Positions 3 through 11,408 of a stretch of 64,000 nucleotides of DNA are shown here, in pieces. Source of the stretch: Bdellovibrionota bacterium (GTDB lineage: Bacteria > Bdellovibrionota_C > UBA2361 > CALJRW01); contig JBGSMD010000063.1 of assembly GCA_041740355.1 (NCBI GenBank), forward strand, positions 96,001-160,000. The letters run 5' to 3'. A program made the position numbers and the translations under genes. The notes under the pieces were generated by a model. The model was not told the origin of the DNA. It did not search any database and saw only the letters and a list, made by a program, of their open reading frames with translations. Each line of letters begins with the position of its first letter. The first letter of the stretch is position 1.

Positions 3-605
3 GATAAGGATAAGCTAAATCAGCTTCTTAATACTTATCAAGAAAAAATTTTGGAACGCGATCTTAAATTCCACCCAGACAAAGATCTATTCCTGAAAAT
101 CGGACCAACTTTAGCAAGCTCCAAAGATTCGCCCTATCAAAGCAAAAAAGTATTTGATTACCTAGGTTACCAAATTAGCGACGAAGGACTTATCTTCCTA
201 AAGTCTTATAAATTTAAAAAACTAAAAAAGGATATTAAGAGTAGACTATTCAACTCCTATCGCACATATTACCGTGCTGGACTAAGTAAGGATCTGCAAA
301 TGTCTAATCTGATTAAAGACCTAAATGGTACGATGCGAGATTTAAATTACTATAATCATTTCGCCGATCTTGTCCTATTCACGACTGATAAACCACGACT
401 TAAGGAATTTGATATTTGGATTGCTCAAACAATTATTGCCATGACTCATAACTGTTCTCGCGCTAATGCGTTTGGGAAAATTTCCTACAGACAAATACGC
501 GAGGCAGGTCTATTCTCGATTCTAAATTACAAGAATATTTATCCTAGAAGAAATGAAGTTCTCCGATCTACAAAAAATCTCCAAAGCAGATCAGCAACGA
601 CGTAA
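3..605 (+). CDS. Reverse transcriptase, C-terminal part (5' truncated by window edge)
   Basis: Frame is open from base 3 (DKDKLNQLLNTYQEKILERDLKFHPDK...). LKFHPDK resembles RT motif 6 (L.lh.eK) and VFDYLGYQI resembles RT motif 7 (F.FLGY), followed by a basic thumb-like region. The catalytic YxDD would lie just upstream of the window and is not visible. Confidence 0.8.
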   Translation, partial: DKDKLNQLLNTYQEKILERDLKFHPDKDLFLKIGPTLASSKDSPYQSKKVFDYLGYQISDEGLIFLKSYKFKKLKKDIKSRLFNSYRTYYRAGLSKDLQMSNLIKDLNGTMRDLNYYNHFADLVLFTTDKPRLKEFDIWIAQTIIAMTHNCSRANAFGKISYRQIREAGLFSILNYKNIYPRRNEVLRSTKNLQSRSATT

Positions 606-2787
606 TCTTGTCCGTAAAGGACTAGAGCAGTATGATCTCAGATCCTACTTACGCTACTTAAGGTATCGAATTAAATGGCCAATACTTTTTAAGTTACTTT
701 CTCGACTAATTGTTATTGTTGAAGTGATTCTAATTCAACAACTATTTACTTATAATATTTTTGCAGACTTAACTCTCTATATTTTCATTATTTTTATCAG
801 TCGAAGCGCCCTAAAAGGTATTACTCAATACTATCGTGTGCAACTAATGCCCCTAGCGACGGCAAAAAACATTTCTGGCCTAAATATCGCCCTAAGTAAG
901 GCTCTGATCATAAACATCTTTTCTGCCTTTTTATTAGCCTTGGTCATTAGCATTCTTTGTCTACTCTTAGATTTATCGGATCAGTTAAACACTTACTTTA
1001 TAATTTCCTGGTGCTTATTAATCCCGCTAGAGCAAATTACCACGCAGCTTTGGAATACCGTCTATCTTAATACCCGACTAAGGCGAAGTGCCTTGATTAC
1101 TTTCATTTGCCGCATGCTTCCAATCATTTCACTATTAGCTTTTAGCAGCTTGATTGGCCCCCTAAGTTACATTCTGGGTACATTTATGGCGAGATTATTA
1201 GAAAGTTTTTACTTATCGCGTGTCGCAATTTTAGCATTAAAGTTCAAATTTACATTAAAGAAGAAATCGAGCAGTTTGTTACAAGTTATCGGACAGTATT
1301 TTAAAAATCAAAAGGCGCGCCAATACCTTTACTTTAATGCCATCCTACCCTGTTATTTTTTGGGTCTTGGATTAATCATCTTTGAACGGGGAGTCGGTAC
1401 CTGGATTACAAATATTATTTATTTTTTTATTTTAAATTTTGCAGTTTTTTTTACTACACAAATTTCACGCTCAATTCAATTTGACATCTACTCCTGCTTT
1501 AAAAAAGGGCAGGTAAAAAAAGCAACGTTCTTAGGCAAAAGAATTGTAAAATATACTTTGAACTTTGCTGTAATTCTAGCAGCTAGCTTTATCTATTTAC
1601 TCTTAAATTCCAAAAGGTTTTACCTTTTCATACCAATTAGCTTAGAATATTTTCTATTAATCTTACCCTTGGCAGTAATTGCTCAAACGTTTTTTTTTTC
1701 GATCTATGCCCAAATCCAATCCCTAGCAATCGATCGTTATTTCACCAAGCTAATCTTCATTAGCTTCCTCCTAATAGGCTTACCAATTCAGTTCCTTCTA
1801 TTTCATTATTACCTCGCAAATCTACAAGCGATCTACTGGACTGAAATCCTTCTCTTTGTGTTTGTAGGTACACTATTATATTTAAATTTGAACTTTAATC
1901 TCAGTCCCTTTTTAATAAAGTATATCAAAAGAGAGCGGAAGGCTCTGCCCCTGTGCCAACCAACTGCACTCCAATTAGAGCTCCGAACTAAATATATCAA
2001 AACTGGCTCAGCTTATCTTTACATATTATCTTATTATGAGCGGGATGCTTTCTGGGAACGCATTAAGTATTCACTTCCCCAAACAAAAGATTTCTTAATT
2101 ACCCGGTACTCTGCTGGGCTCTTCCTGCTTTCATCTCATCAACCACTGACGGATCTTGATTTTCGCAACCTAAGCTTTGTTGCCAAAAAGCAAATAGATT
2201 TAAGCCAAGAGCTACTGCAGACTTTACTGGATATTTATACTTTTTACTATTCTCTAGAATTTAGAAATAGCTCATTCCAAAAAATACGTAATAAGTTCTA
2301 TCTTAATAGATCCATCAAAGAAGAATTGTATCAGTTAGCGGAATTAAAGAGGCCAGTAGATCAAATAATATCAGAGTTGCTTGGAGCTCCTAGGATCGTC
2401 TTCAAAAATGGTAAAATTTCTTGTTTGGGCAAAGTCAGTAATAAACTTTATAATTTTGCTTTGAACCAATATTTTTATCCTGACAATAACTTGGCTCCCG
2501 CAATTCAAGGATCCCAATTAACAATCAGAATTAATAATACGGAAACAATTAGTTTCGACTTAAGGCACTTGAATAGTTACCTAATTGGACAAGTTAATAA
2601 AAAGATTTTTTTCCTCAATCAATATTATTATTTTAAGAATATTATTGATCCCCATTTGCCATATGCAGCTAGCATTCAAGATTATTTAATAGCACGGAGA
2701 CTGATTCATAAACATACCCGTCGCTGTAAAACGAGAAAGGCTGACCATTTAGCAGATCTCAATTTTTATAATCATAAATTAGTATGA
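553..2787 (+). CDS. Polytopic membrane protein, MATE/Wzx (MOP flippase)-like N-terminal ~450 aa plus ~290 aa soluble C-terminal domain
   Basis: About 12 hydrophobic segments in two halves, each with a MATE-like amphipathic linker (LATAKNISGLNIALSKALIINIF; CFKKGQVKKATFLGKRIVKYTLNF). Overlaps the RT 3' end by 53 nt. Fold assignment is by eye. Confidence 0.55.
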   Translation: MKFSDLQKISKADQQRRNLVRKGLEQYDLRSYLRYLRYRIKWPILFKLLSRLIVIVEVILIQQLFTYNIFADLTLYIFIIFISRSALKGITQYYRVQLMPLATAKNISGLNIALSKALIINIFSAFLLALVISILCLLLDLSDQLNTYFIISWCLLIPLEQITTQLWNTVYLNTRLRRSALITFICRMLPIISLLAFSSLIGPLSYILGTFMARLLESFYLSRVAILALKFKFTLKKKSSSLLQVIGQYFKNQKARQYLYFNAILPCYFLGLGLIIFERGVGTWITNIIYFFILNFAVFFTTQISRSIQFDIYSCFKKGQVKKATFLGKRIVKYTLNFAVILAASFIYLLLNSKRFYLFIPISLEYFLLILPLAVIAQTFFFSIYAQIQSLAIDRYFTKLIFISFLLIGLPIQFLLFHYYLANLQAIYWTEILLFVFVGTLLYLNLNFNLSPFLIKYIKRERKALPLCQPTALQLELRTKYIKTGSAYLYILSYYERDAFWERIKYSLPQTKDFLITRYSAGLFLLSSHQPLTDLDFRNLSFVAKKQIDLSQELLQTLLDIYTFYYSLEFRNSSFQKIRNKFYLNRSIKEELYQLAELKRPVDQIISELLGAPRIVFKNGKISCLGKVSNKLYNFALNQYFYPDNNLAPAIQGSQLTIRINNTETISFDLRHLNSYLIGQVNKKIFFLNQYYYFKNIIDPHLPYAASIQDYLIARRLIHKHTRRCKTRKADHLADLNFYNHKLV

Positions 2788-4514
2788 AATCCAAAAGTTT
2801 AATCTACTTTATTTTCATTTTACTAAGCTTAATTATTGGACTATCGCTCCACGCTGAGAGAATCGAAATACCTCTTTACGTTCTACGAAAAGCAATTACT
2901 TGTTCTAGTGTTCAAGAGAAAACATTGGAAGTTGTTTTCCAAAACAAGTCTTATTTGATCGCATTTGACCATATTTACAGTACTCCCGTTATTAATGCAG
3001 GTTTAGTCTGTCAACGTTTGATCCGCTACTTAAAAGCAGCGCCTTCGCCCAATTTAATCATCCCTATCTCCAAAAAATATACCAAGTTCGGCCATGATAT
3101 TTATGTCGATGAATCAGGATTTTTAGAAAAAGCTTGCCTAGAACAAGGGCTTTGTAAGCGAAACATCTTGGATACTTTTAAGCCCAAAAAAATACTCCGT
3201 GAATGTCATGGGAAAATTACACTAAACGGCTTATTGGCAAAATCTCGTCCCAAAATTCCTGGCTATCAAACAAAAATCATTAAAGATGTTACAATTAAAA
3301 TTCACCCATTTCATCCATTTATCAATATTCTAAATGAATACCTTCAAGATCCAATTTTAAAGGAAATTCATGCCTCTACTATGTCAATTGGTAATCAAGC
3401 CCTAGACGATATTTCTGCCAGCACGCAAAGCTACAATAAAAAGGCTGTAATTAATTATGATGCCGGAATTTCATTGTTCAATTCTCAACAAGGCCAAATT
3501 GCTAAGGCTATTACTAAGTCACCTAAAGTTCATTTTTTACCAATGACCAGTGGTAATAATTTTAGCCAATTTTATCACATCAAATTTATTGCTAGCCCAC
3601 AAACTAACAAGTCAATGTTGGCCTCAATGAATTTAGCCTCAGTAGATCGAACAGCATATCTCGACCTAAATTTTTTCTTTGAGGATCCTACTATTCGCGA
3701 TGAGTTTTTATCCATCTCAAATAATAATAATCGAAGATTTTGTGATTATTCTGAAGATTATGACTGCTTAGCAAATTTTTATGATGAAAGATCAAAATCC
3801 CATATTCCACTGGTAATAAATAGAAGTTGTCCGACAAGCAATACCGAAACTACTATCAAAAGATCTGGTTACTTTGTAAACTCCGAAGATGATGATCTCA
3901 AACAATTTGTGATAAACTTTATTAATCAAGCAAAACAAGAAATCATTGTAACTTCCTACAAGTTAACAGAAAGAGCCATTGCCAAGGCCTTATTAAACAA
4001 GCAGCAAGAAGGGCTTAAAGTTCACGCCATGTTAGCCTTTAAATCTCCCGCATTGGGCGAATTGAAAAGCCATTTCTACTCGGGGGAAGTTGTTAAGGAA
4101 GAGTATCCTTTTCCTCACATGAAAATTATTATTATCGATCGCCGACTAATGCTATTTGGAACTGCGAACTTCACGATTAATGCTTTAAATAATACAACTG
4201 AATTAATTGGAGTTACTGATAATCAGCAAGCAATTAAAACAGCGTTAGATCATGTCGCAGTTTTTACACAGTCCAAAGATCTGGCCTTAAGTAAAAACAT
4301 TTCCAATACTCCTAAGCAGAAAAATTATGTAGCAGTGACGAGCTCTACGCAGATCAAACCAGTGAATTTACCTTTTACTAAACCGCTTGAGCAGAAATGG
4401 TTATCAAACTACCGAGAGGTAACAAAGGAAGGCGAAAAATTATTAGATAAGTGTGATTTAAGGCACCTTATTTTTATAACTAAGGCAACTTATTTGGAAT
4501 GTCTTAAAAAATAA
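2784..4514 (+). CDS. Exported phospholipase D-superfamily protein with degenerate SNase-like N-terminal domain
   Basis: Signal peptide MKSKSLIYFIFILLSLIIGLSLHA. Two HKD-type motifs: YHIKFIASPQTNKSMLASMNL (Asp missing) and PHMKIIIIDRRLMLFGTANFT. FINQAKQEIIVTSY is typical of Nuc-type PLD. ATGA overlap with upstream gene. Confidence 0.8.
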   Translation: MKSKSLIYFIFILLSLIIGLSLHAERIEIPLYVLRKAITCSSVQEKTLEVVFQNKSYLIAFDHIYSTPVINAGLVCQRLIRYLKAAPSPNLIIPISKKYTKFGHDIYVDESGFLEKACLEQGLCKRNILDTFKPKKILRECHGKITLNGLLAKSRPKIPGYQTKIIKDVTIKIHPFHPFINILNEYLQDPILKEIHASTMSIGNQALDDISASTQSYNKKAVINYDAGISLFNSQQGQIAKAITKSPKVHFLPMTSGNNFSQFYHIKFIASPQTNKSMLASMNLASVDRTAYLDLNFFFEDPTIRDEFLSISNNNNRRFCDYSEDYDCLANFYDERSKSHIPLVINRSCPTSNTETTIKRSGYFVNSEDDDLKQFVINFINQAKQEIIVTSYKLTERAIAKALLNKQQEGLKVHAMLAFKSPALGELKSHFYSGEVVKEEYPFPHMKIIIIDRRLMLFGTANFTINALNNTTELIGVTDNQQAIKTALDHVAVFTQSKDLALSKNISNTPKQKNYVAVTSSTQIKPVNLPFTKPLEQKWLSNYREVTKEGEKLLDKCDLRHLIFITKATYLECLKK

Positions 4515-4521
4515 AAGAAAA

Positions 4522-4651
4522 AAGAGTTGGGCGGAATTTAACGCTTACCTGCTCTATAATATCTGCCGTCAGAACCTGCACCTTTCTCCGAAGGCGTATT
4601 TACAGATCCCCCTTGCGTTTGGAGAAGCCCGAAGGCGACAACCCAACTCTT
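4522..4651 (-). ncRNA. Putative ~130-nt structured ncRNA of unknown family (strand uncertain)
   Basis: Perfect 10-bp terminal inverted repeat AAGAGTTGGG (4522-4531)/CCCAACTCTT (4642-4651). Internal stem 4584-4596/4614-4626. GCC-UUCG-GGC hairpin on minus strand (4627-4636). GC-rich island in AT-rich DNA, with a U-tract after the minus-strand 3' end. Confidence 0.6.
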
Positions 4652-4657
4652 AATTTA

Positions 4658-4687
4658 ATATTACCATAGCAATTTAACGATAAACAA
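4658..4687 (-). promoter_or_regulatory. Sigma70-type promoter candidate for the ncRNA
   Basis: Minus strand TTGTTT (4687-4682), 18-nt spacer, TG-g-TAATAT extended -10 (hexamer 4663-4658). Predicted +1 near 4651, the first base of the terminal stem. AT-rich context makes chance matches possible. Confidence 0.45.
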
Positions 4688-4731
4688 TGATTTATTTTTA
4701 AAGTTCTAAGAAAGGAATGTAATTAAAAGTT

Positions 4732-5310
4732 TTAGTTCGACTCAACCTTTTGCATTTTCTTCATGTGGATTTGATAAAGCTCTTCTTTGCCATAATCTTC
4801 TAACTCACGTGAGCGACTCATTAAGGTTTCTTTATCTTCAATATAAAGTCTTGGATCCGGATGGTGGACTTCGGGGTGAAGTCCCGTGTCCATTCGAATG
4901 GCATCTACTGGGCAGGCTTCCACACAAAAACCACAATAGATACAAAGCAAAGTATCAATCTCATATCGTCTCGGGAACTTTTCAATTTCAGGATCATCGT
5001 GCTCTGCCGCTTCAATGTAAATACACTTTGCCGGACAAGCAGTTGCACAAAGAAAACAGGAGGTACATTTAACACTACCTTCCGATGTAAGAGTTAAACG
5101 ATGACGACCCCGATATCGCTCTGGGTAATCACGGCGCTCATTGGGATATTGAATCGCAACATCAGCAGCAATATTTTTGGCGAGACCAACTGTATGTAAG
5201 ACATGTAAGGAAAAATTCTTAGCAAGCTTGGTGAAAGTGAAGGCAACACCCTTAGCTACCTCAATCAGGTAGATCTTTTCCCAAAAATTCATTTCTTCAC
5301 GACGTCTCAT
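4732..5310 (-). CDS. nuoI: NADH-quinone oxidoreductase subunit I
   Basis: QYPNE..RYRGRHRL plus two 4Fe-4S motifs, CTSCFLCATACP and CIYCGFCVEACP. Confidence 0.95.
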   Translation of the reverse strand: MRRREEMNFWEKIYLIEVAKGVAFTFTKLAKNFSLHVLHTVGLAKNIAADVAIQYPNERRDYPERYRGRHRLTLTSEGSVKCTSCFLCATACPAKCIYIEAAEHDDPEIEKFPRRYEIDTLLCIYCGFCVEACPVDAIRMDTGLHPEVHHPDPRLYIEDKETLMSRSRELEDYGKEELYQIHMKKMQKVESN

Positions 5311-5379
5311 AAGGCAAATTTATAGCCTATTTTTTAAGTGGGAACAACAAGCTCTGGAACATGCAATTAATAAGAATTC

Positions 5380-7533
5380 TTAAAATTCTTGATGATGGCT
5401 CTTGCCTCGGGGCTCGTTCCGATAGGTTCGATCTTTGGGACTTGGCTTACTCGGCTTATGATTTGCTTCTCCTCGTAATAATCCACCAAGCTTCTGTCTC
5501 ACCATTTGAGGCCCATTAGTTTGATACCATTTGGCACTTACTCTAACCCCAAAATGGATCAGTGGGATGAGCTTTGGTTTTTCAGGATCTTTATAAGAAA
5601 CAACATCAAAGGGCATACCACTTACTAAGCGAGTGCCCCGAGGCAAAATGGAACTTCGATCTAAAATCCTTTGTAAATTATCCTGACTTCCCGCGGCGAG
5701 ATAAACAGTGCCTTTGTCAGTTTTTTTAGAACTAAAAAGTGCGTCACAACCAGACCAGATTGATTCTAGGACTGCTTGATGAATTGTCTCGTCCATATGA
5801 CGAATTGGATATTTTTCTAAGTCTAATTTAAATCTGCGAAGTAAAACTTCCTTAAGTTCGGTACAACGTCTCATACTAACAGAGTCAATACCACATTTGG
5901 CTTGTGACTCGGGAGACATGCCAATTGCCGACTGAAATACCAAAGCTTGCGCGATAGCATCAGAATCCTTTTCGTCATCACAAAGTATCTTCCAATCTTT
6001 ACTACTACTATTTACAACACCACCATTTTCTTGAACGACAGCAACATCAATTGCCAAGCGAAGAATTTCGAAATCCTCATAGGCAACAGACTTTTGTTGT
6101 GCCGTGATTAACATCTTTCCAATTCGAACATCCACTGGCAGATTCGCAACAGCCTTTCCTTCTGTTGTAATATGCCCTTTTGGTCCACATAAATTTAAAT
6201 TTTGCAGAACCCTGAAAGTTTCATCCATTCTTTTTTTGGTAATCCTACTTGGAAATGGCAAGCGCTCAATAGCTTCGCGATTTGGCAGAACTGGACTACT
6301 GATTAATCGTAGAAATAAACTTTCCAACCTAGAATTTTGAATATCCGCTGGTGGTTCAGGGTCTAAATAACGATGCGGTGTTTCGCCATGATAAATAAAT
6401 TTTCCCGGATGAGTCCTTCCGGCGCGTCCTTTTTCTTGAGTAAAATTAAATTTAGAAATCGCCATCAATCTTAAACACGGCACGCCATTCTCAACTACAA
6501 TCCGCTTAACTAATCCAGACATAATGACTAAGTCGATATCTGGAATTGTAATACTTGCTTCGGCAACGTTTGTAGCCAAAACAATTTTTGGTACATCATA
6601 TTTCGCCATTGTTCTTTGCTGCTCCGCAGAGGAAAGCTTAGAATGCAGAGGCATAACAGCAGCGGACATCCCTTCTTTCGCTAAGGCGGCATTTATTGCA
6701 GTTTCCATCTGACTAATCTCATGTTTTCCAGGAAGAAAAATGAGCGTATTTTCACCACGCCTCACAGCGTCGACAGCATCCGCTAAAATAGATTTACCTT
6801 TCTCTCTTTCGTCTACTCGAAAAGTTCGACCAGGAACCTTGATCACTGGAGTGGCAAGACCAAAGACTTTTCTCACTTTATCGGTATTCAGTGTTGCCGA
6901 CATAATCACTAATTTAGGCTTAGGGCCTTTAGGATTCTGAAGCTCTTGAAGGAACATGGCTAGTAATGTTTCCATGTACATGTTTTTTTCGTGAGCTTCA
7001 TCAATCACATAAACGGTACCTTGATCCGAACCTCTATGCCCACCTAATTTTTGTGCTAAAAGTAAACCATCTGTTAAATATGTTACCTTACTAAGCGCAT
7101 TGCAGCATTTGCCGAAACCATGCTGAAAGCCGACTTCCTCTCCAAGTTCTGTGCTGTTCTTAGCTGAGACGTAGGTTGCTAAGTTAACAGCCGCCATTCG
7201 ACGAGGTTGTGTCACCACGACTCGATAACCAAGATCGGCCAGAAACATTGGTACTTCGGTGCTTTTCCCAGAACCAGTTTCTGCTTGAATTACAGTCACG
7301 TTATTATTTAATACCGCACGCTGAATTCTGGCTTTGTAGGCCATGATTGGCAGCTCGCCATTTGTTGTAATAGGTTCAATTTTTGGTTTTACAATATCGC
7401 GAGCAGGAAATCGACCTTGGATTTCACGTGGATTTGGGAAAGTAATCCGGGGGATATGATACTGTGTATGTTTAGGCTGATTTCTTTTACTGTCCCTTAG
7501 GGCTCTTCCACCCTGAGTATTAACTCCTGCCAT
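5380..7533 (-). CDS. DEAH-box RNA helicase, HrpA/HrpB-like
   Basis: AETGSGKST, TQPRRMAA, IDEAHE, MSAT, IFLPG, ATNVAEASITIPD, QEKGRAGR and HA2-like LPVDVRIGKML. Confidence 0.9.
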   Translation of the reverse strand: MAGVNTQGGRALRDSKRNQPKHTQYHIPRITFPNPREIQGRFPARDIVKPKIEPITTNGELPIMAYKARIQRAVLNNNVTVIQAETGSGKSTEVPMFLADLGYRVVVTQPRRMAAVNLATYVSAKNSTELGEEVGFQHGFGKCCNALSKVTYLTDGLLLAQKLGGHRGSDQGTVYVIDEAHEKNMYMETLLAMFLQELQNPKGPKPKLVIMSATLNTDKVRKVFGLATPVIKVPGRTFRVDEREKGKSILADAVDAVRRGENTLIFLPGKHEISQMETAINAALAKEGMSAAVMPLHSKLSSAEQQRTMAKYDVPKIVLATNVAEASITIPDIDLVIMSGLVKRIVVENGVPCLRLMAISKFNFTQEKGRAGRTHPGKFIYHGETPHRYLDPEPPADIQNSRLESLFLRLISSPVLPNREAIERLPFPSRITKKRMDETFRVLQNLNLCGPKGHITTEGKAVANLPVDVRIGKMLITAQQKSVAYEDFEILRLAIDVAVVQENGGVVNSSSKDWKILCDDEKDSDAIAQALVFQSAIGMSPESQAKCGIDSVSMRRCTELKEVLLRRFKLDLEKYPIRHMDETIHQAVLESIWSGCDALFSSKKTDKGTVYLAAGSQDNLQRILDRSSILPRGTRLVSGMPFDVVSYKDPEKPKLIPLIHFGVRVSAKWYQTNGPQMVRQKLGGLLRGEANHKPSKPSPKDRTYRNEPRGKSHHQEF

Positions 7534-7916: not shown

Positions 7917-8807
7917 CTACAAACACTCTTGTAATTTTTTTAGTAACTTCATTGCGGCAACTGGAGTTGGTCCACAGATCAAATGATAACCAACCACATA
8001 ATCTTTGCAAGCAACAGCAATGTCTCGACATAATTTAAAAGAAAACTCTCCAAGATCAGCTTCTGGATCTGCTTCCGCCATCGCAATTAGCTCCGGTGAA
8101 ATTTTAATTCCGGGAACATTTTGAAAAGCCAAAGCATTGCGCCCCTTGCGAAAAGGTAAGAGTCCAAGAAAAAGTGGCACTCCAACTTCGCTAGCTGCTT
8201 TGAAAAAACCAACAGCTTGATCAACATCAAAGACTGGTTGACTGAGTGCATACTGCGCTCCAGCTAATTTTTTCTTTTCTAACTTTCTAAGTTCTGGTCC
8301 TGGGTTGCGAACATTTGGATTCACAACACAACCAGGGATGATAGCCGGCGCACCTTCTAGATCATTCCCGGCTAAATCCTTGCCAGCATTAAGAGTCTTA
8401 ATGGTATCTAGTAATCCCACAGAGTTAACTTCGAACACACCCTTACAATCTTTGTTATCACCAACACTGATCGCATCACCAGTTAGGGCGATAATATGAT
8501 TAACCCCCAAACTACCAGCGGCAAGCAACTCTCCTTGCATGGCAATTAAATTACGATCTCGACAGGAGAGGTTAACCATCGTCTCAACTCCATAACGCTC
8601 TTTAAGTTTAGAAGCGAAGACAATTGGGTTCATCCGCATGCGAGCTAGAGCCGAATCGGTAACATTTAAATAATCAATTTGGCCAAGATACTTATCAAGC
8701 CTAGCAAACACCTCATCTGAGGAAATTCCCCGAGGGGGATTCACTTCTAGGCAGAATAGCTTTTTATTTTCTTGAAAATTTAAGGATTTAGGGGAGAAAT
8801 TGCTCAT
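7917..8807 (-). CDS. metF: Methylenetetrahydrofolate reductase (YitJ C-terminal type)
   Basis: EVNPPRG, NVTDSALARMRM, SCRDRNLIAMQ, ALTGD, GVFEVNSVGL and SQPVFD. Confidence 0.9.
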   Translation of the reverse strand: MSNFSPKSLNFQENKKLFCLEVNPPRGISSDEVFARLDKYLGQIDYLNVTDSALARMRMNPIVFASKLKERYGVETMVNLSCRDRNLIAMQGELLAAGSLGVNHIIALTGDAISVGDNKDCKGVFEVNSVGLLDTIKTLNAGKDLAGNDLEGAPAIIPGCVVNPNVRNPGPELRKLEKKKLAGAQYALSQPVFDVDQAVGFFKAASEVGVPLFLGLLPFRKGRNALAFQNVPGIKISPELIAMAEADPEADLGEFSFKLCRDIAVACKDYVVGYHLICGPTPVAAMKLLKKLQECL

Positions 8808-8984
8808 TTCTGAGTAAATAATACAGAGAGGGCGAAAAGTCTATTAGCCACTGATAGTTAGCTATCTGAGTAAATTCTGTTATTTGAAAAAGACCTTAAT
8901 GGAGATTATACTCAAAAAGCATTGTAATCTTCGAAAAATGAAAGTATACAATATGACGTGTCATTTTAAACATTGTGTATTTTC

Positions 8985-9593
8985 ATGAGCTTACAAGTTG
9001 AAGTTTTTTATTCCTTTCAGAGTCCTTACTCTTACCTAGCCTTAGAGTCGATCTATAATCTAGAAAAAAAGTATGATATCGACCTTTTGTGGCAACCATT
9101 TTCTGCTAAAGCTAGCGGTCAACAAGCTCCCTCAGGGATGACTGTCTTGCCTGAAAAGTTCTCCTATCTTATTGAAGATACTAAGAGATTTGCTACTAAG
9201 ATGAATTTACCGCTGGAATTTCCAGAAAATTGGCCTAATGAAGAATTCGATCCAGGTCGAGTTTGTCGTGGAGCACTCGTTGCAAACGATCTTGGTGTCC
9301 TAATGGAATATAACTATAAAGTTTTTCAGTGTTGGTGGGGAGAAGGTCGCGATCCAAATACAGACGAATTTACTTCTGAACTATGTGAAGACTTAGACAT
9401 TGAACTAGGTGATTACATCAGTAAGTCTTCTGCTAGTGAAATCCGTCAAAGACTGAAAGCTATTTACCACCGTGGACGTAAAATGGGTGTATTTGACACT
9501 CCAACTATTGTTATCAACCAAGAAAGATTCTACGGAATCGACAAAGTTCCATATGTTGATGAATATCTTAAATCTCTTAACTTAGGGATTTAA
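8985..9593 (+). CDS. DsbA-family / 2-hydroxychromene-2-carboxylate isomerase-like protein
   Basis: FYSFQSPYSYLA and GVFDTPTIVINQERFYGIDK. ATG at 8985 preferred over TTG at 8973. Confidence 0.85.
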   Translation: MSLQVEVFYSFQSPYSYLALESIYNLEKKYDIDLLWQPFSAKASGQQAPSGMTVLPEKFSYLIEDTKRFATKMNLPLEFPENWPNEEFDPGRVCRGALVANDLGVLMEYNYKVFQCWWGEGRDPNTDEFTSELCEDLDIELGDYISKSSASEIRQRLKAIYHRGRKMGVFDTPTIVINQERFYGIDKVPYVDEYLKSLNLGI

Positions 9594-9599
9594 TCGCAC

Positions 9600-10319
9600 G
9601 TGCCCTCCCGAATCTTTGTTAACTCACTTAATAGTTGGCAAAGCGGTGAGGGCATTTTATTATCTAAAGATCAGACACATTACCTTACTAGGGTTCTTCG
9701 CCTTAAGGAATCAGATCAAATTGAAGTGGTTAATAAATCCACTGCCCAAGTATTTTTAGCTGAGCTTCTTCCGGCGGAAAGCACAGCGATCCTTACCTCT
9801 GAAATTTCAAACTCCAAATTTAACACTAAATTAAATCTAATTTTTGCTTACTGCAAAAGTGATAAGAATGAATTAATAATAGAGAAAGGCACGGAACTAG
9901 GAGTTGATAATTTTATTATCTATCAAGCAAAACACTCCATCGCCAAGCTAAGTCCCAATAAGTCAGAACGTTTAGAAAAAATTGCCGAAGCTGCTTCTTG
10001 CCAGAGCAAAAGAAACACCCTACCCAAGATACACTTAGCGGAGAGTCAAACGAAATTACACACAAGCTTACAGGCTTTAACGATTGGAAGATCGCTCTCA
10101 CTAATCGCCTCGTTGGAAGTAAAGCAATTACCCATACCAAACAATATAAGCGACTACTTAACAATTAATTTTGCAGTTGGACCAGAAGGTGATTTCACCA
10201 CAGAGGAGTACAAACTTTTTAAAGATTTTGGATTTCTGCCGATTAGCTTAGGTAGAAATATTCTAAGATCAGAGACAGCCGCAATTGCTGGGATCTCCTA
10301 CATAAATATTCTCAGATAA
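9600..10319 (+). CDS. rsmE: 16S rRNA m3U1498 methyltransferase
   Basis: HYLTRVLRL, KGTELGV, VGPEGDF and LGRNILRSETAA. Confidence 0.95.
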   Translation: MPSRIFVNSLNSWQSGEGILLSKDQTHYLTRVLRLKESDQIEVVNKSTAQVFLAELLPAESTAILTSEISNSKFNTKLNLIFAYCKSDKNELIIEKGTELGVDNFIIYQAKHSIAKLSPNKSERLEKIAEAASCQSKRNTLPKIHLAESQTKLHTSLQALTIGRSLSLIASLEVKQLPIPNNISDYLTINFAVGPEGDFTTEEYKLFKDFGFLPISLGRNILRSETAAIAGISYINILR

Positions 10320-10321
10320 GA

Positions 10322-10804
10322 TTAAGTTATATTTTGGTAATCTAAAACCTTAAAAAGCTCCTTCATTTTTTGATATCGATAATCAAAAATGTTCTTAAGC
10401 TGATTCTTTACCAACAACTCTCTCGCTATTTGACCAAAGATGCCACAAGGCATTCCATAATGAACTAAATCTTCTACCACCAAGCCTTGATCTGTTTTTC
10501 TAAATGAATGTTGATGGTGCCAAAACTTATAAGGTCCAAAGCGCTGCTCATCTATAAAATACTCCCGATCTTTAACCTGGGTAATTTCCGTCACCCATTG
10601 CATTGGGATTCCAAGTAAAGGATAGACTCGATACTCTATTATCTTGCCAGGATATATTCTTCCATCTTCTGCGCCAGATATAAATTTAAAGTTTAAAAAC
10701 TCAGGTGTAATAATCTTCAGATTCATCGGATTACTAAAGAAGTCCCAAATAGTTTCCAGATCTTCATTTAGGATAAATCTTTCTTTGATCTGATAAATTT
10801 TCAT
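10322..10804 (-). CDS. SRPBCC/START-like family protein
   Basis: WDFFSNPMNLKIITP and FIDEQRFGPYKFWHHQH. Confidence 0.85.
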   Translation of the reverse strand: MKIYQIKERFILNEDLETIWDFFSNPMNLKIITPEFLNFKFISGAEDGRIYPGKIIEYRVYPLLGIPMQWVTEITQVKDREYFIDEQRFGPYKFWHHQHSFRKTDQGLVVEDLVHYGMPCGIFGQIARELLVKNQLKNIFDYRYQKMKELFKVLDYQNIT

Positions 10805-11003
10805 AAAATATTGCTTTGATTATAATACTAGCCACTTTACTGATGAATCTTTTCAAATAAAGATTACTTACTAAATTAAGTATCTATGACGTAAGAACTA
10901 GATTAAATTGCACAACTTTTCTTAGATTAGGATATTCAAATTCAATCGCTGTCCAAGTAAATTTGCAAACTGCCAAAAAGTGTATCGCTGCGGATGAGTT
11001 TTA

Positions 11004-11145
11004 TAGTTATGACAAAAACTAATTTCCGAATATTTAAAAATTAGTTTTGTGATTTTTGTCATAACCGTATGATTTTATAACGCTTGCGGGGGATAGTAAG
11101 CCCCAGAAAGTAATTCCTATTGGAAATTCCTTTCTGGACTTACTA
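11004..11145 (+). repeat. Dispersed three-hairpin repeat, copy B
   Basis: Begins TAGTTATGACAAAAACTAATTTCC and contains GGGGGATAGTAAGCCCC, as in copy A. Confidence 0.85.
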
Positions 11146-11408
11146 TAGTATATTTATTTTGCTCAGATTCTAAGTTTATTTTATAAGGTCTAGAGACTTA
11201 TGCGAACCCCTTGGGTCACATCAAGCACTTTATGCTTGAGATACGAGGCAACCAGATCTTATTAAGGAAAGTTTCAATGTCGCCTAGTATATTCTTGGAT
11301 TTAGACTAAAGCTGGACTATTTGAGCTTAAAAATTAATGTTTGTTAAATATAATGTCGAACAATTATTAGCTTTCAAATTTAACTTAAACGACTTAATAA
11401 ATACAAAA

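Follow-up and report, generated by a model that had tools for sequence, protein, structure and literature searches.

The 64,000 nt stretch of DNA analyzed here, called the window below (positions 96,001–160,000 of the forward strand of contig JBGSMD010000063.1, GenBank assembly GCA_041740355.1, from a Bdellovibrionota bacterium; G000:C63:96001-160000, where G000 is this genome and G001 its congener, one other species of the genus), carries at its left end a locus that very probably represents a four-part module not described before, of which this genome has three paralogous copies. The parts are a ∼140 nt stem-closed non-coding RNA (ncRNA), a catalytically intact reverse transcriptase (RT) of an unclassified clade nearest the UG26, UG17 and group-II-like (G2L) RTs, a transporter whose 12 helices adopt the MOP fold and whose C-terminal domain is cytoplasmic, and an exported, disulfide-rich phosphodiesterase of the PLD family with two HKD motifs; the first three would form a core that spans at least five phyla, to which the PLD protein is a Bdellovibrionota-type addition. 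An RT combined with an ncRNA and a partner protein is a known design, but a partner of the transporter class is apparently unprecedented. The coupling of an RT and a small structured RNA to a flippase-like transporter suggests a link between reverse transcription and an event at or across the membrane.

In the window, the RT gene is present as its C-terminal 200 codons (3–605, plus strand), an open reading frame (ORF) that is open at its 5′ end and whose start lies outside the window. It overlaps by 53 nt the gene for a 744 amino acid membrane protein (553–2787, plus strand; identified from the ORF list, an AlphaFold2 model and fold matches), which in turn overlaps by 4 nt the gene for a 576 amino acid PLD-superfamily protein (2784–4514, plus strand; identified by a PLDc_2 match and a signal-like N-terminus). 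Re-calling the genes returned the three same-strand ORFs and both overlaps exactly as the initial annotation had given them. The structured RNA, recognized by conservation and covariation, occupies bp 4516–4657 (closed element 4522–4651), is closed by a 10–11 bp stem and is probably encoded on the minus strand.

Conservation of the module

The genome contains exactly three RT, three MOP and three PLD genes of these families, and all nine lie in the three modules, with no orphans. The copy on contig C11 has its three genes in one orientation; that on C16 has an RT–MOP pair and a PLD gene divergent from it. Within the genome the paralogs are only 30–36% (RT), 25–28% (MOP) and 35% (PLD) identical; judged by their sequences, they are old. 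Of 61 related genomes only this one, with three copies, and that of its congener encode the membrane protein, a word-indexed protein search with the MOP protein returned the congener ortholog only, and a membrane-protein profile found the family in six of 124 genomes of the phylum, this genome counted. The order RT, MOP, PLD, with overlapping or abutting genes, is found in G001, G067 and G082; G055 has the same order with its RT and PLD genes cut at contig ends, and in G058 the gene after RT and MOP is an ORF without assigned identity that the contig end cuts.

Beyond the phylum, a HMMER search of 1.84 billion proteins with a four-sequence MOP profile gave 28 representatives, including a 1316 amino acid MOP–PLD fusion; this number understates the family, as loci anchored on the RT gave many more members. 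A scan of 185,579 species genomes with the RT alignment yielded 73 loci. In other species, the gene directly downstream of the RT belongs to the MOP family for 54 of the 56 full-length RT genes that could be evaluated (49 recognized by an iterated MOP profile and five high-GC loci regained after correction of a start-offset filter); the two exceptions are L075, where an unmatched 11-segment membrane ORF lies at the contig end, and L083. The ∼620 amino acid membrane proteins of the Bacteriovoracaceae are divergent members of the MOP family (hhalign probability 96.7%, E = 3e-10). Judged by record titles, the RT loci span Bdellovibrionota, Myxococcota, Actinomycetota, Pseudomonadota (Legionellales, Coxiellaceae, Francisellaceae and Rickettsiales) and an anammox planctomycete. 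An apparent swapping of partners in the Actinomycetota loci was rejected: the 912 amino acid ORF in question (hhalign probability 0.1% to MOP) arises from reading a high-GC genome in the wrong frame, and what really follows the RT there is a MOP gene (E = 1e-131).

The PLD gene has a narrower distribution. It follows the MOP gene in nine of 60 strong RT loci, all of them Bdellovibrionota-type records with the congener included, and two further loci have it as well: L064, which carries a split RT, and L096, in which it is part of a fusion protein. The conserved core, as these gene orders define it, is thus ncRNA, RT and MOP, and the PLD protein is a lineage-specific third part. The expectation that RT homologs would keep both neighbors and the RNA therefore holds for the MOP gene (54 of 56), and for the trio in the three paralogous modules and in G001, G067, G082 and G055; it does not hold for the PLD gene outside Bdellovibrionota-type records, and the RNA models are lineage specific. 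In L064 (7734–9287, Bacteriovoracaceae) the RT is divided between two adjacent ORFs of 310 and 206 amino acids while MOP and PLD look intact, which could reflect a frameshift or an assembly error. Four loci on contigs of metagenome-assembled genomes (MAGs) of Saccharibacteria and Magasanikbacteria (L097–L100) encode shorter RTs (∼330 amino acids), distant from the clade, followed by proteins of ∼870–1120 amino acids that have no hydrophobic segment by a crude count and, in L097–L099, no Pfam match; they may represent a sister system that pairs the RT with another partner.

Reverse transcriptase

The complete RT has 472 amino acids if it begins at a GTG codon (L002:11187, window position −813) or 442 if it begins at an ATG codon (L002:11277, window position −723), the latter being the start used by the congener. 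A palm domain with a YxDD motif, which the initial annotation had expected to the left of the window, is present there as FYVRYGDD. The protein matches Pfam RVT_1 at E = 1.4e-19 (71 bits; cutoff 29.6), and F229, Y230, R232, G234, D235 and D236 are invariant in 31 RT homologs; with its YGDD unchanged in all 31, the enzyme appears to be active.

Its best PADLOC match is RT_UG26 (9e-33, 112 bits), equaled by the generic RT model (1e-32), with the Cas1-associated RT model, RT_UG17 (2e-25) and Drt9 (7e-24, 83 bits) close to it, followed by Drt3a (71 bits) and Drt2 (67 bits). RT_UG26 is also the top PADLOC match of all 31 diverse relatives, the best of them scoring 7e-48 as against 1e-46 for generic RT and 1.6e-42 for Cas1-associated RT. 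Because RT_UG26 never scores better than the generic RT models, the clade is treated as unclassified, a probable neighbor of UG26, UG17 and G2L rather than a demonstrated member of UG26. The protein reaches no family-level profile score for DRT2, DRT9 or DRT3 (NCBIfam Drt3a, 64 bits against a cutoff of 200), nor does it fall among the retron RTs (NF038233, 34 bits against 235; PADLOC retron RT models, E = 1e-9 to 1e-11).

The best NCBIfam match is the group II intron RT/maturase family (TIGR04416, 107 bits), and the gene could on that account be taken for a remnant of a group II intron or another selfish retroelement with chance neighbors. The score is far short of the cutoff of 300, neither an RNA domain of group II introns nor any other Rfam family is found at E ≤ 1 in the 17 kb searched at this locus, and the same downstream gene would hardly recur in 54 of 56 loci by chance; this explanation is effectively refuted.

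The MOP-family membrane protein

The membrane protein matches no Pfam family at E ≤ 0.1 (MatE, Polysacc_synt and MurJ included) and no PADLOC or NCBIfam model, five of its relatives match no Pfam family at E ≤ 0.01, and on these profiles it belongs to none of the curated MOP sequence families. Its fold is another matter. An AlphaFold2 model made with a 25-sequence family alignment as input (pLDDT 87.3, pTM 0.85) predicts two six-helix lobes of the MOP superfamily followed by a soluble domain, in agreement with the ∼12 transmembrane segments, MATE/Wzx-like character and soluble domain that had been proposed from the sequence. Residues ∼25–455 of the model superpose on MATE1 with Z = 29.6 (425 residues, rmsd 3.8), on WzxE with Z = 21.8 and on MurJ with Z = 21.5, and Foldseek aligns it with MATE structures at E values down to 2.8e-7. 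In the family alignment all 25 members have E57, R175 and P190, and R39, R95 and D311 are almost invariant; the five charged residues among these (E57, R175, R39, R95 and D311) all lie within the transporter domain (∼25–455).

The C-terminal domain of ∼280 amino acids (residues ∼465–720) is modeled as a soluble alpha/beta domain whose GGDEF-like and GAF/PHY-like matches (Z 6–7) are too weak to name it, and a search of the protein atlas gave no usable match for it.

The exported PLD-family protein

The third protein matches PLDc_2 at residues 377–486 (E = 2.4e-16, 60.2 bits; Pfam cutoff 27). Its N-terminal hydrophobic segment comprises residues 6–24, and all 13 PLD homologs begin with such a signal-like segment. 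H265, K267, N283, H445, K447 and D452 are invariant in the 13, as are seven cysteines; the first HxK motif (H265/K267) has P where the canonical D stands. In the structure model (pLDDT 87.3), residues ∼160–500 form a full bilobed PLD fold, with matches to a bacterial PLD (Z = 26.0 over 298 residues), PssA (24.2), vaccinia F13 (24.2), the ssDNA exonuclease PLD4 (23.7), PPK1 (22.4) and Nuc (16.2). By this fold and its two HxK motifs the protein belongs to the PLD superfamily; the modeled fold leaves lipid and nucleic acid substrates undistinguished. Its signal-like N-terminus marks it as exported, and with both motifs invariant it looks active.

The reading of this gene as an exported PLD/SNase protein thus stands for the signal-like N-terminus and the two HKD-type motifs, the first of them without its Asp; the SNase part comes down to a weak SN-like or extended-Tudor resemblance of residues 25–127 (Z about 5). 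Every NCBIfam equivalog cutoff lies above its scores: NucT, 42.5 against 297; DrmC (NF038319), 40.4 against 133; cardiolipin synthase, 20.3 against 290. It is therefore not a DrmC of a DISARM system by score, and none of the 19 neighbors of the genome's three loci, among which DrmA, DrmB and a methylase would be expected, has a PADLOC match at E ≤ 1e-10. Nor is it a Nuc/NucT protein, being a 576 amino acid single chain with two motifs as opposed to a homodimer of ∼150–180 amino acid subunits with a single HKD.

Two natural MOP–PLD fusions (P0026, 1316 amino acids; L096, 1400 amino acids) bear on its location. Because in both a hydrophobic segment is kept between the MOP C-domain and the PLD part, the PLD is read as sitting on the membrane face opposite the MOP C-domain, which agrees with its signal peptide and conserved cysteines.

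Structured RNA

The element at 4522–4651 begins 8 nt past the PLD stop codon and has a perfect 10 bp closing stem. As a single sequence it folds only modestly better than shuffled versions (z = −2.75 on the plus and −2.07 on the minus strand), and the case for it rests not on this but on conservation and covariation. It has no Rfam match; in 17 kb of this locus Rfam gave nothing at E ≤ 1, and no tRNA was found there. The congener has a copy with 80.6% identity over 160 nt that likewise sits at the PLD 3′ end, though the next gene differs, and of which one arm overlaps the last PLD codons; this identity is high beside the 58–71% protein identity of the three adjacent genes in the two genomes. 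With a covariance model built on these two, a third copy was matched over its full length in the intergenic stretch before the paralogous RT-b gene, where its orientation relative to the module is the reverse of that in the window. Two-sequence alignments show no double-sided compensatory change on either strand, but in the alignment of all three sequences the closing stem remains paired through three double and one single compensatory changes, and a 3 bp hairpin stem is kept while its loop goes from UUCG to GAAA, stable tetraloops that appear only on the minus strand of the window.

With the improved model the 3.27 Mb genome yields exactly two copies, both beside modules, the congener one copy, and G058, G067 and G082 none. 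The first model (R1) had found the element in only two of the 124 phylum genomes and in none of the other 122, and among 62 loci a model of this genus's RNA (R2) matched the G001 copy only. No T-run terminator was found on either strand. Among sequencing runs, three DNA runs from one study contain this stretch, and no RNA run was listed for it. On its conservation and covariation, the element is judged to be a real structured RNA of the module. The initial annotation was thus right about a closed structured element within 8 nt of the third gene; its strand is probably opposite to that of the operon, so that it would be read convergently with the PLD gene. Compared with the RNAs of other lineages described below, the RT-b copy appears to hold the usual position, upstream and in the same sense, and the window copy and its congener ortholog would have been relocated to its operon's distal end and inverted.

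It might be argued that the element is instead a plus-strand 3′ untranslated or terminator structure, or an unrelated small RNA or repeat, and not the cognate RNA of the RT. Its place 8 nt after the PLD stop, the overlap with PLD codons in G001, the about equal folding of the two strands and the lack of double-sided changes in the two-sequence alignments would fit such a structure. The absence of T-runs, the location of the second copy upstream of RT-b and not at a 3′ end, its opposite orientation relative to the module, the restriction of both copies in 3.27 Mb to the flanks of modules, the minus-strand tetraloops and the presence in other lineages of stem-closed ncRNAs upstream of the RT in its sense all speak against it, and we consider it quite unlikely.

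Seven Actinomycetota loci share a ∼140–165 nt block just upstream of the RT gene and in its sense, with a 13 bp closing stem, three inner helices and an A-rich conserved single strand before the 3′ arm; its G-U/G-C alternations are compatible only with the RT-sense strand. A model of this Actinomycetota/Myxococcota RNA (R3), searched against both strands of 926 kb, gave 15 matches that include other Myxococcota loci. All 15 are in RT sense, 14 at or just upstream of the RT start and one ∼600 nt upstream. In the R3 alignment 26 of 30 pairs have double-sided changes and 96.8% of cells are paired, as against 38–50% when the partners are slid, and none of 500 shuffles reaches the observed value; the alignment is model-guided and fitted to the structure, so these covariation figures are inflated. 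In the PLD-bearing lineage, five Bacteriovoracaceae loci have a ∼180 nt RT-sense upstream block with a 15 bp closing stem; double changes occur at 11 of the 41 pairs in this block, with 92% of cells paired. R3 has no match at E ≤ 1 in this genome's loci with default filters. We conclude from these alignments that a stem-closed ncRNA is in all likelihood a general part of the system.

Several smaller observations concern the regions upstream of the RT genes. One Polyangiaceae MAG contig (L043) carries two tandem RT–MOP cassettes (2889–6119 and 8076–11350), each preceded by an R3 match (E = 0.0045 and 6e-4). Where the RNA models are blank, inverted repeats lie just upstream of the RT gene at L016:9618–9828 (RT-c of this genome), L027:7060–7201 (G082) and L029:6763–6927 (G058), with arms of 14, 9 and 21 nt spaced by 183, 124 and 123 nt; they could close elements of 140–210 nt, and as single-sequence observations near chance they are leads only. 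A conserved inverted block in Coxiellaceae was rejected as an RNA of the system, as it is a tRNA-Arg(CCU) gene. At eight other loci Rfam searches at the gathering threshold gave only tRNAs.

Relationship to described systems

No described system was found to match, in line with what had been suspected at the outset. PADLOC has no match to the MOP protein, PADLOC, Pfam and NCBIfam contain no description of an RT–MOP pairing that the module would fit, and in searchable full text (subscription-only papers and supplementary tables being outside its scope) no RT is paired with a MOP, MATE, Wzx or MurJ protein or other flippase.

The ends of retron ncRNAs form a long closing stem, the a1/a2 repeats. 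The module is like the retrons in its stem-closed ncRNA and its three-part design of RNA, RT and accessory protein, and unlike them in its low retron RT scores and in having a 12-helix transporter rather than a 2-TM protein (TM, transmembrane segment) as partner. With the class 2 UG/DRT systems (DRT2, DRT9, DRT10 and UG27) it shares a stand-alone RT of ∼400–500 amino acids with no fused domains and an adjacent ncRNA that is usually upstream and same-sense; unlike them it has a MOP-fold transporter as obligate partner and lacks a defense-island context. UG26 is described as a class 2 UG/Abi group of 35 members, nine of them with a YcjD/Vsr-like endonuclease, for which the defense prediction was inconclusive (Mestre et al. 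2022, PMC9226505), and the parts of that paper that treat the group mention no PLD or large membrane partner. The UG26-type Vsr-like domain is absent from all 37 downstream proteins scanned here, the gene after the RT being MOP in 54 of 56.

Membrane proteins are not foreign to RT systems. Some retron effectors are described as membrane proteins (PMC8632793), and accounts of DRT1 and UG5-large, which have small TM proteins, and of UG17, which has a SLATT protein, include examples of an RT genetically linked to a membrane protein on which function depends (PMC9226505, PMC8632793); where the 2021 FEMS review (PMC8632793) turns to TM partners of RTs, those mentioned are small. The partners of DRT1, UG5-large and UG17 are predicted pore-formers with 2–4 TM, and their RTs are large nitrilase fusions or belong to other clades, whereas here the partner is a full MOP fold with a 280 amino acid soluble domain. 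That protein in turn is like the MATE, Wzx, MurJ and TacF-type transporters in its fold over ∼430 residues, and unlike known MOP transporters in its extra C-terminal soluble domain, its operon with an RT and its lack of a Pfam MOP-family match. The PLD protein has the bilobed two-HKD fold and conserved His/Lys pairs of Nuc/NucT, DrmC, PLD3/PLD4 and PssA/Cls; it differs from the known enzymes in being a single chain (Nuc is dimeric), in its signal peptide, extra N-terminal domain and invariant cysteines, and in a first motif without Asp.

Possible functions

The reading tentatively favored over a role in defense is that a product of the RT is coupled to transport and to processing by the extracytoplasmic PLD; export of cDNA and defense were also the two alternatives put forward by the initial annotation. 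Counted in its favor are the very tight linkage of the genes, the clear MOP fold with its conserved charged residues, the signs that the PLD lies outside the cytoplasm and is coupled to the transporter, the invariant motifs of both enzymes, the cognate RNA, and surroundings that show no defense-island signal but include GT-C glycosyltransferase genes at two loci. The RT product, or a conjugate of it, would be passed to the MOP protein, which it would either cross the membrane through or gate; the PLD, on the outer face and tethered to the transporter (fused to it in some species), would then cleave or transfer the phosphodiester-linked product outside the cytoplasm. A more specific form of this idea, which as it stands seems unlikely, is a dedicated route for reverse-transcribed DNA out of the cytoplasm: the RT would copy the ncRNA template at the membrane from a lipid, protein or RNA primer, the MOP protein would flip the anionic polymer or conjugate as its relatives flip lipid-linked glycans and teichoic-acid precursors, and the tethered periplasmic PLD would trim it or transfer it to an acceptor in the envelope. 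If true, predatory and host-associated bacteria would have a way of making surface or extracellular DNA that is templated by RNA and resembles the teichoic-acid pathway.

A number of points weigh against a coupling of RT product to transport and processing. Any cDNA, the substrates of transporter and PLD, and the role of the module in the cell are inferred, and the export of an RT product is inference pure and simple. Solved MOP proteins of the MATE, Wzx and MurJ types carry small drugs or lipid-linked glycans, not nucleic acids, and a shared fold, here a modeled one, is no proof of transport. Outside the Bdellovibrionota-type records no third gene is conserved, the next genes encoding ArgRS, enolase, Tex, GH18, peptidase S9 and so on, and the system therefore does not in general require a processing enzyme outside the cytoplasm. 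The RNA in the window lies downstream of its operon and probably antisense to it, unlike the upstream RT-sense position found elsewhere, and homology between this genus's RNA and those of other lineages appears unsupported, R2 and R3 showing no cross-detection. The best PADLOC matches of the PLD protein, weak as they are (5.7e-13), are to DrmC models. Finally, the ncRNA-dependent relatives that published accounts describe as characterized (DRT2, DRT9, DRT10 and DRT3) are all antiphage systems, and on such base rates defense would be favored.

In an abortive-infection or antiphage system, the ncRNA and RT would do the sensing and make cDNA, and upon infection the RT product would activate the MOP protein (and here the periplasmic PLD) to depolarize or degrade the membrane or to cut incoming DNA in the periplasm. 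Such a role would suit the nearest profiles of the RT, which are class 2 DRT/UG and CRISPR-associated RTs, the antiphage function of its ncRNA-dependent relatives, and the membrane partners described for DRT1, UG5-large and UG17-SLATT; it would also suit the DrmC and NucT models that best match the PLD in PADLOC and NCBIfam, the patchy spread over phyla, the three diverged paralogs in one genome (RT identity 30–36%) and the tRNA genes that adjoin some cassettes. The surroundings of the loci do not have the character of defense islands, however: among 137 neighbors in 18 loci only eight have PADLOC matches at E ≤ 1e-10, all to generic domains, and at that threshold none of the 19 neighbors in this genome's three loci has one, so that no defense-island signature is present at the loci examined. 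In place of a small pore-former the partner has the fold of a 12-helix transporter, with charges conserved inside the membrane, no PADLOC model matches it, and an exported PLD cannot reach phage DNA in the cytoplasm. Cassettes also occur in MAGs of Coxiellaceae, Legionellales and Rickettsiales, bacteria that carry few defense systems. On balance defense is the main rival explanation, if a somewhat improbable one. A conventional envelope-polymer pathway, in which the MOP protein would flip a lipid-linked glycan or teichoic-acid-like precursor, the PLD would transfer or trim it outside, and the RT and ncRNA would be only a regulator or assembly factor, can draw on Wzx and MurJ among the best fold matches of the MOP protein, on the PssA-type and PLD-type transphosphatidylases at the top of the PLD fold matches, and on the GT-C glycosyltransferase genes that abut the module in G082 (PMT_2) and G001 (GT87). 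These glycosyltransferase neighbors occur at two loci only, no gene for a sugar-activating or initiating transferase is conserved with the cassette, and the strict conservation of the RT active site together with the covariation of the RNA points to a real polymerase function, so that a purely envelope-directed role is very unlikely.

Retrons and DRTs have yielded both new biology and tools, and each new class of partner has shown a new use of cDNA. The present module places reverse transcription beside a trans-membrane step, which would be new either way, whether as a transporter-type defense effector or as export or display of nucleic acid made by an RT. It offers testable parts: three families of ncRNA supported by covariation, catalytic and cavity residues that do not vary, and fusions found in nature.

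Neighboring genes

The genes around the module here encode topoisomerase IV subunits, an SspB-like protein, a NuoI-like ferredoxin and a DEAH helicase. The NuoI-like 2x[4Fe-4S] ferredoxin gene (window 4732–5310, minus strand), with no other nuo gene in 9 kb of listed ORFs, lies directly downstream of the DEAH/HrpA-like helicase gene (window 5380–7533, minus strand). Upstream of the window, L002:7815–10151 encodes a 778 amino acid multi-helix membrane protein with no Pfam match, which has an ortholog near the module in G001 (L017:812–3088). A tRNA-Arg(CCU) gene lies ∼250–450 nt upstream of the RT gene, in varying orientation, on three Coxiellaceae MAG contigs (L046, L051 and L085), and in L042 a tRNA-Gly gene is upstream; the tRNA genes beside cassettes may be integration sites of islands. 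At the RT-c module of this genome, a type IV pilin-like gene (L016:11667–12092, minus strand; motif GFTLVELLV) is convergent with the PLD-c gene and overlaps its 3′ end by 4 nt.

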